A program made the translations under genes and the position numbers. Below, piece by piece: positions 7,566-62,872 of a stretch of DNA of 64,000 nucleotides (its first letter is position 1; every line of letters begins with the position of its first letter). The DNA is from an uncultured Holophagae bacterium (GTDB lineage Bacteria; Acidobacteriota; Thermoanaerobaculia; Thermoanaerobaculales; Sulfomarinibacteraceae): positions 643,393 through 707,392 of the forward strand of contig CAWDGW010000014.1 of assembly GCA_963801995.1 (NCBI GenBank), given 5' to 3'. The notes beneath the pieces were generated by a model, which was not told the origin of the DNA, searched no databases, and worked only from the letters and a program-made list of their open reading frames with translations.

Positions 7566-7596
7566 AATCTTCAATTTTCAATCTTCAATTTTCAAT
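7566..7596. repeat. Heptamer tandem repeat H1 (AATYTTC x 4.4)
   Basis: AATCTTCAATTTTCAATCTTCAATTTTCAAT, identical over 31 nt to 32984-33014. Confidence 0.95.
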
Positions 7597-7677
7597 TTCG
7601 CCCTGGGGGATCGGATACGATACCTCGCAGCACCGGGATCGGGACCCCAACGCCCGACCGGTGAAAAGGAGACGCCT

Positions 7678-8220
7678 GTGAAGAACCCGATTGTGATCAT
7701 GACGGTGCTGCTGCTGGCGGCGGTGCCCGCTGCGGCGCAGAAGGTCTACGTGGACTGGGACCCGACGGCTGACTTCGGCTCCTTCAAGACCTTCGCCTGG
7801 GCCAAGACCGCGCCCACCTCCTTGGAGGCCAACTACCCTTTGATCCACTCGTTCATCAAAAACTCGCTCGAGTACGAGTTGGCCTCAGGCGGACTGGTGG
7901 AGAACACCGACGATCCTGACGTCTGGGTCACCTACCACGCCTCCACGAAGCAGAGCATCCAGGTCATGACCTCCTCCTACGGCTACAGCTTCGGCCCATA
8001 TTGGGGTGGCGCTGGCGCGTCCTCTGCAATGGTGAACACCTATGACAAGGGCACGCTGGTCATCGACATCTGGGATGCGCGCAAGAAGGAGGCGATTATT
8101 CGAGGGACCGCCTCGAAGGTCTTCTCGGACGAAGAGAGCAAGGCCCTCAAGCAGATTGACAAATCGATCACCAAGATCGTCACCAAATTCCGCAAGATGC
8201 GCGAAAAGGAGTCTCGCTGA
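7678..8220 (+). CDS. DUF4136 domain protein with signal peptide (paralog 1 of 4)
   Basis: 180 aa. It has a signal peptide and the motifs VYVDWD..FKTFAW, PDVWVTYH and GTLVIDIWDARKKEAIIRG, shared with ORFs at 32344, 46995 and 59514. Confidence 0.7.
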   Translation: MKNPIVIMTVLLLAAVPAAAQKVYVDWDPTADFGSFKTFAWAKTAPTSLEANYPLIHSFIKNSLEYELASGGLVENTDDPDVWVTYHASTKQSIQVMTSSYGYSFGPYWGGAGASSAMVNTYDKGTLVIDIWDARKKEAIIRGTASKVFSDEESKALKQIDKSITKIVTKFRKMREKESR

Positions 8221-8225
8221 CCGTC

Positions 8226-61051: not shown

Positions 61052-61080
61052 CCAACTGCCAACTGCCACCTGCCAACTGC
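61050..61080. repeat. Heptamer repeat H3 (TGCCAAC-type x4.4)
   Basis: TGCCAAC TGCCAAC TGCCACC TGCCAAC TGC, abutting the VWA gene stop codon. Confidence 0.9.
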
Positions 61081-62748
61081 TCACTGCGTTGCTTGGGCCT
61101 CCGCCTTGGTGATGGTGTTCGTATACGTCCTGCCGCCGTAGACGTCGTACAACGCCATTGAGACGCGCTCGGTGTTCTTGCGCAGCTTGAGTGTCACGGT
61201 GTGGGCCACCAATCCGTTGACCGGGAACGGACTCGGGCTCGACAGCAACAGCGGAATTGCCGGTACCTCGCTGCGACCGCCCGAGGCATCGAGGGCGGCA
61301 ACGAAGAGGACGGCTTCGGCGTCGAAACCGGTCTCCGACTTTTGGATCGTGAGGGCACCGATGGGAATGGACATGTCGATGTCCACGTGGAACAGCCCGC
61401 GGCCCGCCTCTTCCACCGACCCGAGTTTCATCTGCAGCTCGGAAGACGGGCGTCCCATTCCGAAGAGCAGCGAGCTTTCCACCGCCATGGCGACCTGGGT
61501 CTGGGCGGCCAGGTCGAGGTAGCCCGATCGGGTGCGCAAGAACACGTCGTCCCGTGATACCTCGACCCGGATGGAGTGCCGTTCGTCGTTCCGATTCCAC
61601 TCCGGCGTGAATCCGAGCCAGTAGAAGGACTCCACGTCCTTGCGGACTTCGCCCAGCGCGCTGATGCGCCGGTCGTTGATGAGAGCCATGCCGCCGGTCT
61701 CGGCAGACATGAATCGGAGCGAACTGTGGAGGTCATCCTCCAGGAAAAACTCGGTGCTGCCGTAGGCGGCTCCGCGGCCGGAAGCCATCGCGGCGTCGCT
61801 GCCGCCGGACTGCATGAAGCCGGGTATGTCAATTCCGTAGATGCTGTAACCGAGCAGGTTCGCGGTTTCGGCGAGGGGTCCGTAGAGATCCGCCCCCGAT
61901 GGAATCTGTCCCTCCTGGATCGACCGGGTGGCGCTCCGGCCGACCCAGTCGTCCACGTTCATGGGCCAGCCGCCGGCCAGCAGCAGCAGGGCCTTGCGGC
62001 CGGGGATGACGTCGAGGCCGCGCATGGCTGACGCGGCCGCGCCCACGGTGCCCTGGAGCTGGCCCACCAGCATGTCGGCGTAGATCCTCTCCTGGGTACC
62101 CAGCCGGTAACGGTCACCGCCGCCGAATGCCGCCGAGGCCCCGAGGTCTGACGGATCGAGGGTCACGCTGTACTGCTTTCTTTCGAGTTGTCGGGTGAGT
62201 CCCTGTGCGGGTCGTCGCAGCGCCTCGTCGATGGCGGCAAGCGCTGTCGCCTTGTCGTTGGTCCAGTCGGTGAGAACACTGACCCCGGTGCCGTTCCAGG
62301 CGACAACGGCCACCCGGTCCTGGGGCCGCCACTCCCCGGAGGCCTGGACTCGCTCCTTCAGCGCCGTGAGCACCTGTTTCTTGTCGCGGGCGATGGGGAA
62401 GAACTCGTCGATGAAGACGAGAAAGCTGGTACCGGACGGGCCGCCCGCCACCACGCCGTAGTCCGCATACCGCTCGACGGTGTCCACATAGGCACCCTCG
62501 CGAACCTCGGTGAAGTACTCGATGGGCGCTTTCACGTCGTCCACATAGAGCGTGAAATCGTCCTTGGTGAGGCCCGGGATCCGTTGTCCGTCTCGATCCG
62601 AAATGACGACTTCGAAGTTGAGGACCTTCACCTCGAGGGTGTCCGCGTAGGTCCTCGTGGGCTGCTGCGCCCCCACCGTGCCGACCCCAACCGCAACCGT
62701 CACTGCCATCGCACCGAGTGCCAAGGCCTTGAGTGGAAATGCTCTCAT
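61081..62748 (-). CDS. VWA domain protein of the acidobacterial VWFA-related type (TIGR03436-like)
   Basis: 555 aa. After a signal peptide comes LEVKVLNFEVVISDRDGQRIPGLTKDDFTLYVDDVKAPIEYF, the typical N-terminus of this family. VWA-like FLVFIDEF.. and LLLLAGGWP follow. Confidence 0.65.
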   Translation of the reverse strand: MRAFPLKALALGAMAVTVAVGVGTVGAQQPTRTYADTLEVKVLNFEVVISDRDGQRIPGLTKDDFTLYVDDVKAPIEYFTEVREGAYVDTVERYADYGVVAGGPSGTSFLVFIDEFFPIARDKKQVLTALKERVQASGEWRPQDRVAVVAWNGTGVSVLTDWTNDKATALAAIDEALRRPAQGLTRQLERKQYSVTLDPSDLGASAAFGGGDRYRLGTQERIYADMLVGQLQGTVGAAASAMRGLDVIPGRKALLLLAGGWPMNVDDWVGRSATRSIQEGQIPSGADLYGPLAETANLLGYSIYGIDIPGFMQSGGSDAAMASGRGAAYGSTEFFLEDDLHSSLRFMSAETGGMALINDRRISALGEVRKDVESFYWLGFTPEWNRNDERHSIRVEVSRDDVFLRTRSGYLDLAAQTQVAMAVESSLLFGMGRPSSELQMKLGSVEEAGRGLFHVDIDMSIPIGALTIQKSETGFDAEAVLFVAALDASGGRSEVPAIPLLLSSPSPFPVNGLVAHTVTLKLRKNTERVSMALYDVYGGRTYTNTITKAEAQATQ

Positions 62749-62842
62749 CTCGTCCCCCCTCTGGTTCTTCAGAAAACCCGTCCGGTCAATTCAAGGTCCG
62801 ATCGAGGCCGAACATTCCCATTCGTGCCGGATCATGGTTTTT

Positions 62843-62872
62843 CCGAATTCCGAATTCCGAATTCCGAATTCC
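62843..62872. repeat. Heptamer repeat H2 (CCGAATT x4.3)
   Basis: TTTTTCCGAATTCCGAATTCCGAATTCCGAATTCC. It lies between the VWA gene start (62748) and the stop of the next minus-strand gene (62907). Confidence 0.95.

Follow-up and report, generated by a model that had tools for sequence, protein, structure and literature searches.

Heptanucleotide repeat arrays and G-rich boxes at gene boundaries in an uncultured member of the Thermoanaerobaculia

What produces, and what keeps in place, the short tandem arrays of seven-nucleotide units that are found between the genes of some bacteria? The question is raised here by a stretch of 64,000 nucleotides (hereafter the window) from an uncultured Holophagae bacterium of the Thermoanaerobaculia (assembly GCA_963801995.1, contig CAWDGW010000014.1, positions 643,393 to 707,392), where such arrays recur at gene boundaries and many of them begin next to a G-rich box. 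Bacterial heptanucleotide repeats have reportedly been known since 1990, and are said to have been shown in 2007 to be the dominant class of long simple-sequence repeats (LSSRs). The arrays of the window are members of this known class in a new lineage; the reading that we favour for them, with a probability of roughly 0.55, is that they are born by slippage, evolve in concert, take their start at the G-rich boxes, with selection at gene boundaries acting as a filter. The clues that bear on their origin are a box anchored on a fixed side with the freshest units beside it, a sharp lineage boundary, and the conservation of position while the units turn over.

The arrays were located with Tandem Repeats Finder and with an independent scan that required at least three copies and at most two mismatches; dinucleotide shuffles served as the control. 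Sixteen arrays of period 7 were found in the window, against a shuffle mean of 0.33 and a maximum of 2, so the intergenic heptamer arrays that the initial annotation had described from the letters are real, and each lies where it had been placed. Two arrays of period 8 (0.03 in shuffles) and three of period 9 (none in shuffles) were also present, while periods 10 to 13 gave no array in the window scan or in its shuffles; the predominance of heptamers over the other periods that are not multiples of three is repeated in the relatives considered below. Fifteen of the 16 period-7 arrays are intergenic, in a window whose intergenic DNA amounts to about 4.3 kb (6.7%), and about nine of its 24 intergenic regions carry at least one of them. 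The arrays are nearly missing from coding DNA, where a step of 7 nt would shift the reading frame. Copy numbers vary little around their median (about 4.4 units), and the arrays are internally homogenised, including higher-order units of 14 and 28 nt. The placement at gene boundaries extends, as had been proposed, to stop codons, which lie within or against array units in three genes: at 60075-60077 (DUF4136), 35120-35122 (AsmA-family) and 61081-61083 (gene 61081-62748).

The window has a GC content of 62.7% and contains no tRNA and no Rfam match; beyond the arrays and a block of 162-bp repeats, it holds no further exact repeat of at least 25 nt. It encodes, among others, two sigma-54 activators, sulfatases, an AsmA-family protein, lipopolysaccharide-core proteins, glycosyltransferases, a CDF transporter and four paralogous DUF4136 lipoproteins, and the distant homologues (about 38% identity) of gene 61081-62748 are labelled 'VWA domain-containing protein [Thermoanaerobaculia bacterium]'. 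The sigma-54 activators, the DUF4136 lipoproteins, the sulfatases and these labels agree with the earlier view that the host is not a cyanobacterium, and the labels by themselves make a Thermoanaerobaculia-like source within the Acidobacteriota plausible.

Among the unit families, the H1 pair (AATYTTC) at 7566-7596 and 32984-33014 is identical in 31 of 31 positions and its flanks share no homology. The reverse H1 copies at 24526-24557 and 60069-60088 are genuine, and the 'degenerate' copies that had been noted near 45084 and 46926 are each about two poorly matching units long and do not count as evidence. The H2 arrays (CCGAATT) at 60240, 61021 and 62843 are identical, as claimed, but the first two are not independent: they share 30 nt more upstream and both border the 162-bp tandem repeat (x4.2), so this pair is a local duplication, whereas the copy at 62843 is independent. 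The identity of whole arrays at separate loci had been taken as a sign of recent spread or of functional constraint; this loses force for the duplicated H2 pair and keeps it for the H1 pair without common flanks. As for constraint on the units themselves, unit families do recur across related genomes above chance, but units turn over at orthologous sites. All the other unit types listed in the initial annotation were found (H3, GATGCGA, GCATCCA, GGACTTT, GGAATGT, AAATCGA, the 8-mer GGGGAGAA and the 6-mer CCGTAC). The lower GC content attributed to the arrays holds for H1 and H2 but not for H3 and the G-rich units.

Many arrays begin abruptly just 3' of a box of the type GGGYGGGYGG, such as GGGTGGGTGGGGG or GGGTGGGCGGGCGG. 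In the window these boxes occur on the plus strand at 24746, 35094, 32965, 59449 and 54061, and on the minus strand at 24571, 24629, 60101 and 62906. The association was measured in 34 arrays from the window and its close relatives, each oriented by its G-poor strand, with a strict definition of the box (G3+ N1-2 G3+ within 30 nt). The strict box lies 5' of the G-poor strand in 12 of the 34 arrays and on the 3' side in four, and the counts for its C-rich complement are three and one; against a background of 2.3-2.5% per 30 nt, the 5' association is about 15-fold and involves about one third of the arrays. Several more have looser G-rich 5' flanks. The sequence GGGTGGG is not enriched window-wide (25 copies against 18.5 expected), yet eight of these 25 have an array no more than 30 nt away. 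The G4Hunter scores of the boxes are 2.0-3.1. Adjacent units are more alike beside the box (6.2 of 7 positions) than at the far end of the array (5.0 of 7; n=19, Wilcoxon p=0.0006), and box-adjacent units often start with AAY and end in C, which gives a YAAY junction. Among the other heptamer-bearing genomes sampled, the box accompanies one of 309 arrays; a link between G-box and array as a general property of heptamer arrays is thus ruled out, and the association is a feature of this lineage. The box, the polarity of the arrays and their restriction to a narrow lineage had all escaped the initial annotation.

The polarity is seen in the orientation of the arrays towards genes: in 22 of 29 arrays (p=0.008) the gene closest by is the one towards which the G-poor strand reads, and on the sense strand many arrays precede a start codon by 17-100 nt. 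Between the two genes of a co-directional pair, the stop codon is followed by the G-box, then by the array and then by the start codon (32965, 54061, 59449). The box GGATGGGGTGGGGGGGGG (32965-32982; features are on the plus strand unless a minus-strand reading is indicated) lies 40 nt past a DUF4136 stop codon and is followed by an H1 array (x4.6, 32984-33015, with the 31 nt of 7566-7596) that ends 17 nt before the start codon of the CDF transporter (33032), a start that is confirmed by the exact database protein P0241. The G-rich box GGTGGCGTGGGGGGGCGG (54061-54078) overlaps the last codons of the upstream open reading frame (ORF) and precedes a 6-mer array (CCGTAC, x4.5, 54085-54111), and GAGGGGTGGGA (59449-59459), 18 nt past the stop codon of the upstream gene, precedes an (AAATCGA) array (x3.4, 59461-59484) upstream of a DUF4136 gene. 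Where 3' ends converge, the array comes after the stop codon and the C-rich box after the array (35107, 60069, and also in the relatives L201 and L206). Here the H3 array at 35107-35125 (x2.7), next to the box GGGTGGGTGGTGG (35094-35106), runs antisense into the AsmA-family gene (35120-39298, minus) and provides its stop codon, and the H1 array at 60069-60088 (x2.5-3, minus-strand reading), with GGGCGGTGGGGGG (60089-60101, minus) on its 5' side, contains the TGA of a DUF4136 gene. A third H3 array (x4.6-5.5, 61049-61087), fused to an H2 array (x4.4, 61019-61049, the right copy of the duplicated segment), abuts gene 61081-62748 (minus) and provides its stop codon, which reads GCAGTGAGCAG in the sense direction; an unrelated DUF4136 gene of L206 ends in the same context. 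The left copy of the duplicated H2 segment (x4.4) is at 60238-60268, and the independent H2 copy (x4.6, 62841-62872) lies upstream of gene 61081-62748, near the box GGGTGGGCGG (62897-62906, minus), which abuts the stop codon of gene 62907-63983.

The densest site is the divergent region 24463-24866 (404 nt). Towards the DegT aminotransferase gene, and read on the minus strand, it carries the box GTGGGTGGGCAGGGG (24616-24629) 5' of an 8-mer array (TCTCCCCT, or GGGGAGAA when read on the plus strand, x5, 24572-24613), and the box GGGTGGGCGGGCGG (24558-24571) directly 5' of an H1 array (x4.5, 24525-24557) that abuts a TATAAT -10-like box. On the plus strand there are a short (GGAATGT) array (x2.3-2.7, 24631-24649), a (GGACTTT) array (x4, 24695-24722), and the box GGGTGGGTGGGGG (24746-24758) directly 5' of the long H3 array (AACTGCC, x7.7, 24759-24812), which has 14- and 28-nt higher-order periodicity. 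A consensus scan of the region gave TTTTCA-16-TATAAT (10 of 12 positions), whose -35 hexamer lies inside the H1 array, and TTGACT-18-TAAGAT, a promoter-like site 16 nt past the H3 array that would serve the downstream gene. Phase-variation repeat loci lie inside an ORF or between the -35 and -10 hexamers, and changes in their unit number switch surface or host-interaction genes; the arrays described here lie upstream of -10-like boxes and not between promoter hexamers, and their neighbouring genes are functionally mixed. The spacing from G-box to -10 box is not conserved (38 nt vs 30 nt). The H3 reverse complement (TTGGCAG repeats) was also considered as a sigma-54 promoter and rejected by inspection, its GG-to-GC spacing being off consensus. 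Intrinsic terminators (hairpin plus U-tract) were likewise rejected: RNA folds around the G-boxes are no better than those of shuffles, and hairpin-plus-U sites in the window do not exceed the shuffle expectation (11 vs 13.1 and 11 vs 14.9).

Three further sites carry arrays. One H1 array without a G-box (AATCTTC/AATTTTC, x4.9, with a 14-nt higher-order unit) lies at 7565-7598 between the divergent GntR and DUF4136 genes. It is inserted immediately beside an operator-like palindrome of the GntR/FadR type, ATGTTATAACATAT (7537-7550), which lies upstream of the GntR gene and is conserved in the relatives L205 and L206; at the orthologous site of L206 the array is missing. Farther on, a degenerate (AAGATCC) array (x3.7) followed by (GATGCGA) (x3.9) occupies 46520-46569, and (GCATCCA) (x3.7) occupies 46608-46633. 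The last two are partial complements, at five of seven positions per unit, and form an imperfect hairpin (z = -2.0); no other inverted repeat was found at the arrays, nor any inverted H1 pair in the window. A degenerate (CGAACCC) array (x4.4, 25909-25939) lies inside the last 15 or so codons of the ORF 24867-25955.

In order to see the arrays in their relatives, the DegT protein was used as an unbiased anchor, which gave 79 metagenome loci (L122-L200) with 23-89% protein identity. These loci hold 13 period-7 arrays in 721 kb, against 16 in the 64 kb of the window, and six of the 13 are in L122 (81% identity) and L181 (89% on a fragment), with three each in 2-3 kb. Other close relatives were also rich in arrays: ten in 21.7 kb of L201 (79%, syntenic), two in 3.5 kb of L202 (87%), three in 3.6 kb of L211 (83%), and three, in tandem modules, in L206 (84% on IlvD). 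The stretches with three arrays (L122, L181, L206 and L211) measure 2-9 kb. None was found in L203/L204 (78%), L209/L210 (70%) or L207 (68%). Overall, the relatives at 75-89% protein identity carry arrays, and mostly more distant ones (down to about 54%, a few at 77-78%) have almost none; from these counts we conclude that the trait is confined to a narrow lineage.

Within this lineage, the position of an array is kept at orthologous sites while its unit, its copy number and even its period change. Upstream of DegT, both the window and L122 have alternating boxes and arrays that end in ...CAATCC(C)TATA(TA)TAAT, and the units are AATCTTC/AATTTTC in the window vs AATTCGC in L122, and the 8-mer TCTCCCCT vs the 7-mer CTCCTTG; L122 has one array-plus-box cassette more. 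Arrays are also acquired and lost from one relative to another. The L208 segment 130-175, orthologous to the H1 site upstream of the CDF gene, keeps a box, GGGTGGGTGGGT, which is followed by a decamer array (ATCTGTGTYY)x3. In the alignment of L201 and L211 (85% mean column identity overall), a clean gap of 28 nt, that is 4 x 7, falls inside (GCAATCT)n and the aligned flanks are otherwise nearly identical. Length polymorphism of the slippage type, for which the initial annotation had proposed comparing strains, is therefore present. The free turnover of units at orthologous sites indicates that the sequence itself is not strongly constrained.

According to the reading that we favour, slippage would create and resize the arrays. 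DNA synthesis that copies the G-rich strand would reach the box from the array side and stall there, and the primer terminus could then realign out of register, so that an array would be born and grow at the box junction; the predicted stall point, on the array side, is exactly where the arrays sit. Ectopic exchange between box-flanked sites might spread a restricted set of units. Which of the arrays persist would depend on selection at gene boundaries, and their polarity would arise from this filter: upstream of genes, the persisting arrays would be those whose G-poor strand, on the sense side poor in start codons and in Shine-Dalgarno-like runs, reads into the gene, and downstream of stop codons they would be purine-rich, stop-containing units. 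At a period of 7 nt, a unit that contains a stop codon blocks each of the three reading frames in the space of 21 nt. Any cis-function would be secondary and independent of the unit sequence.

Several observations weigh against this reading. The presence of arrays at orthologous sites survives about 20% protein divergence; for ten of 13 distinct window units, some other genome of the lineage has a unit that differs at no more than one position, where 4.3 would be expected (P=0.005), and the window, L122 and L201 (at 903-937) each have a case of an array in direct contact with a -10-like TATAAT box. This persistence of position, the adjacency to -10 boxes and the shared repertoire hint at selection or function beyond slippage alone. 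The samples are small, and arrays that are neighbours or orthologues do not count as independent. About two thirds of the arrays have no strict G-box, including the one at 7566, the H2 copies and those at 46543/46608. The test for degeneracy away from the box is biased, the far end having been defined by decay. No single box is a canonical four-tract quadruplex motif, each having one to three runs of at least three Gs, and stalling is for this reason an assumption. The strand of the boxes has no bias with respect to the apparent direction of replication (five plus, four minus, with a monotonic GC skew; a small sample), which a purely replication-driven model would not predict. Nor does the reading account for the step of 7.

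Other explanations have been proposed or can be imagined for the same features. It is conceivable, if doubtful, that the modules are functional and polar punctuation between genes, serving as a Rho-loading C>G tract, a G-rich roadblock, an insulator or UP-like promoter-upstream DNA, with slippage as no more than the source of raw material. The gene-directed polarity, the fixed order of elements in co-directional pairs and at convergent 3' ends, the contact with TATAAT-like boxes and the retention of modules at orthologous positions despite unit turnover all speak for this idea, and the lack of an excess of canonical terminators makes another termination device plausible. However, sister lineages do without the modules, the distance from G-box to -10 box varies, and RNA folding gives no support at the boxes; arrays of 25-55 nt are short for Rho loading, and a strong terminator would be harmful where an array ends 17 nt before a start codon in what appears to be an operon (32984-33032). 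Another possibility, which we regard as improbable, is that a multimeric protein peculiar to the lineage and advancing in steps of 7 nt binds the arrays, either in the DNA or in the transcript, the S1, Csp and CsrA families being candidates. More than 12 unrelated units in one window, including CT-rich ones without AAY, and the change of units and even of period (7 to 8 to 10) at orthologous sites are hard to square with sequence-specific recognition, and arrays are also found antisense at 3' ends; nevertheless, the sense-strand arrays upstream of start codons, the limited repertoire that recurs across genomes, the frequent YAAY junctions in box-adjacent units and the narrow copy number would suit such a protein, and a post-transcriptional regulator has been proposed for TAACTGA repeats (MacGregor 2015, PMC4679880).

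Could the modules instead move as units? Identical 31-nt H1 copies without flank homology, units shared at non-orthologous loci of several genomes (GATGCGA is exact at such loci in three, the window, L122 and L211), and the extra cassette of L122 are what small non-autonomous mobile elements would leave if they inserted at gene boundaries, either similar to MITEs (transposable elements of the miniature inverted-repeat type) or repetitive extragenic palindromic (REP) sequences, or copied by a transposase or reverse transcriptase; REP-like hairpin repeats also co-occur with arrays at 60.1-61.0 kb and in L211 and L201. We hold this, too, to be improbable. There are no terminal inverted repeats or target-site duplications and no transposase or reverse transcriptase among the window genes examined, the arrays have ragged ends that trail off into degenerate units, the number of copies varies by whole units and not by whole elements, and heptamer arrays of matched composition are equally common in public collections. 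Finally, the arrays might be assembly or read-end artefacts or mere segmental duplications, as would be suggested by contigs from an independent read-set collection that break inside H2 arrays, by frameshifts in two window genes that point to some indel errors, and by the H2 pair within a local duplication. This is refuted for practical purposes: over the 1828 bp of 61039-62866, which take in H3 and portions of H2, the window has 100% identity with a contig from the independent read set ERR11523668, the same architecture is present at orthologous sites in independent JGI, ENA and NCBI assemblies, the arrays are shorter than typical assembly k-mers, and the H1 copies share no flanks.

Beyond this lineage, an exact-pattern scan for H1 with one genome per species gave more than 120 stretches across many phyla, among them several metagenome-assembled genomes (MAGs) of Thermoanaerobaculia, many Bacteroidota, Patescibacteria, cyanobacteria, Planctomycetota and Chloroflexota, and the 8-kb loci around the matches contained 319 arrays of period 7 vs 26 of period 8. 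In viral contigs, heptamer arrays permuted to the same composition gave 38 and 65 stretches vs 37 for H1. Since these controls are equally common, H1 (AATYTTC) was rejected as a conserved cross-phylum element, and its recurrence reflects the general abundance of heptamer arrays. In other MAGs of Thermoanaerobaculia and Acidobacteria, (GAAAATT)4 and (AATTTTC)4 occur as inverted pairs whose hairpins, some 33 bp long, are nearly perfect (z = -6 to -10), at L051 493-581 and 1925-2010, L064 3408-3511 and L020 106-197, and also in L041, L048, L088 and L005; in L051 there is one such hairpin at either gene end. This palindromic use of heptamer arrays was not seen in the window.

Some neighbouring features of the window deserve mention. 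The REP-like cluster at 60113-61018 (60136-60983) carries the motif TGTGGTGCRGSC 15 times, at a spacing of 54 nt and in alternating orientation, with stems GTGCAGCC...GGCTGCAC and GTGCAGGC...GCCCGCAC. It corresponds to the 162-bp tandem repeat (x4.2, 98% identity) that has the duplicated H2 arrays at its borders. Elsewhere in the window the motif is absent; L201 has one exact match (12803), and a similar, not identical, sequence adjoins arrays in L211 (about 3176-3200). Each of the four DUF4136 paralogues (7678-8220, 32272-32925, 46944-47588 and 59496-60077) has an AAT-type, H1-like array within about 110 nt, and DUF4136 genes in L201 and L206 are likewise flanked by arrays; this association was noticed post hoc and may be coincidental given the density of arrays. 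A class-III aminotransferase gene (about 4128) and an aldehyde dehydrogenase gene (about 5710) are each split by a frameshift relative to L206, a PMT-like glycosyltransferase is apparently split into two overlapping ORFs (21507-23205), and a short N-terminal sulfatase fragment (46650-46931) precedes a DUF4136 gene; all of these are either pseudogenes or assembly indel errors. The gene at 52666-53721 (minus), with Neur_chan_LBD and Neur_chan_memb domains, encodes a homologue of the prokaryotic pentameric ligand-gated ion channels. Public short-read contigs barely exceed the gene that they carry, being 971-1165 bp long for the 900-bp CDF gene (33032-33931) and 1784-1828 bp for the 1668-bp gene 61081-62748, which suggests that the assembly graphs of the relatives also break at the repeats that flank these two genes.

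A further proposal goes beyond the origin of single arrays, and we put it forward tentatively, as something rather unlikely: the cassette made of a G-rich box and a G-poor array might be an undescribed polar intergenic element, either a box-anchored 'repeat factory' that works through stalling, or a set of cooperating boxes that insulates genes. In the latter form, neighbouring boxes would cooperate, for instance by forming split quadruplexes whose loop is the G-free array, against incoming transcription. If true, either form of the cassette would be the first anatomical handle on the long-unexplained heptamer repeats. If the box is causal, the question of how such repeats originate becomes experimentally testable; if not, the window is a well-documented extra case of a known oddity. 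The array-rich and array-poor lineages are close in identity (75-89% vs 54-78%), which makes a comparison of their gene content, in helicases, mismatch repair genes and binding proteins specific to the lineage for example, a practical route to the cause.

The known systems to which the arrays can be compared differ in how closely they match. CRISPR arrays (short palindromic repeats, clustered and regularly interspaced) consist of constant 23-50-nt repeats with unique spacers, usually with cas genes nearby. A reading of the cassettes as such an array was rejected: the 'repeats' would be the G-boxes, which are 10-18 nt long and degenerate, the 'spacers' are themselves tandem repeats, and there is no cas gene among the Pfam matches of the window. 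The REP sequences and bacterial interspersed mosaic elements (BIMEs) of enterobacteria are also lineage-specific short intergenic repeats at gene ends in alternating clustered modules; however, they are imperfect palindromes and the window arrays are direct repeats without self-complementarity. Membership of the arrays in REP/BIME or MITE families was excluded, as no inverted repeat was found at them apart from the imperfect pair at 46543/46608 and their ends are ragged.

Closer in kind are the heptanucleotide systems. The TAACTGA repeats of marine Beggiatoaceae, cyanobacteria and some Bacteroidetes, with 2-6 copies near start codons (MacGregor 2015, PMC4679880), are likewise intergenic heptamer direct repeats with a patchy distribution across phyla; they have one dominant unit and related heptamers are seldom repeated, whereas the window has many units, which are also found at 3' ends, and not a single TAACTGA. 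The initial annotation had likened the arrays to the short tandemly repeated repetitive (STRR) heptanucleotides of heterocystous cyanobacteria (Mazel et al. 1990, as cited in PMC4692102). The likeness is one of kind, since both comprise several 7-nt units per genome that are tandem and dispersed in non-coding DNA with no known function; it does not extend to sequence, as no tandem copy of the STRR1-3 units (CCCCAGT, TTGGTCA, CAACAGT) was found in the window. The STRR host is cyanobacterial, and no association with G-boxes is known to have been described for STRRs.

The closest described case is that of the heptamers GGGAATC of Xanthomonas and GGGGA(C/T)T of Nostoc, in which every unit has a G-tract and four units form a quadruplex; the G-rich strand is the non-coding one upstream of genes and the coding one downstream, stop codons are overlapped, and arrays of about four units occupy the same intergenic positions in related species with variation in length and sequence, their function being unresolved (Rehm et al. 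2015, PMC4692102). The window arrays resemble them in intergenic dispersal, in the number of about four units, in polarity, in stop-codon overlap and in orthologous positions with variation (window vs L122, L208, L201 and L211), and the Xanthomonas host also has a high GC content. In contrast, most units here are G-poor and the G-tracts are in a separate, one-sided box, only the 8-mer GGGGAGAA (x5, 24572-24613) having a G3-4 tract in each unit; many unrelated units coexist in the window, GGGAATC and GGGGAYT are not tandem in it, and the host belongs to another phylum.

The broader class of heptameric LSSRs fits better than the STRR families. In the accounts given in PMC4679880 and PMC4692102, heptanucleotide arrays are the predominant LSSR class in many bacteria, and polymerase slippage over a contact of about 7 nt was proposed as the cause of the heptamer excess (Mrazek 2007); the class is statistical, comprises units of 5-11 nt, is distributed sporadically and favours genomes that are large and of high GC content (Mrazek et al. 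2007, as summarised in PMC4679880). The over-representation of heptamers, the exclusion from genes of units that are not multiples of three, the change in length by whole units and the proposed slippage are all shared with the window. Box-anchored architecture and polarity are no part of the class. The novelty is thus not a new kind of system; it lies in a new host lineage, at the level of the phylum, and in an architecture that is anchored at a box and built from many units.

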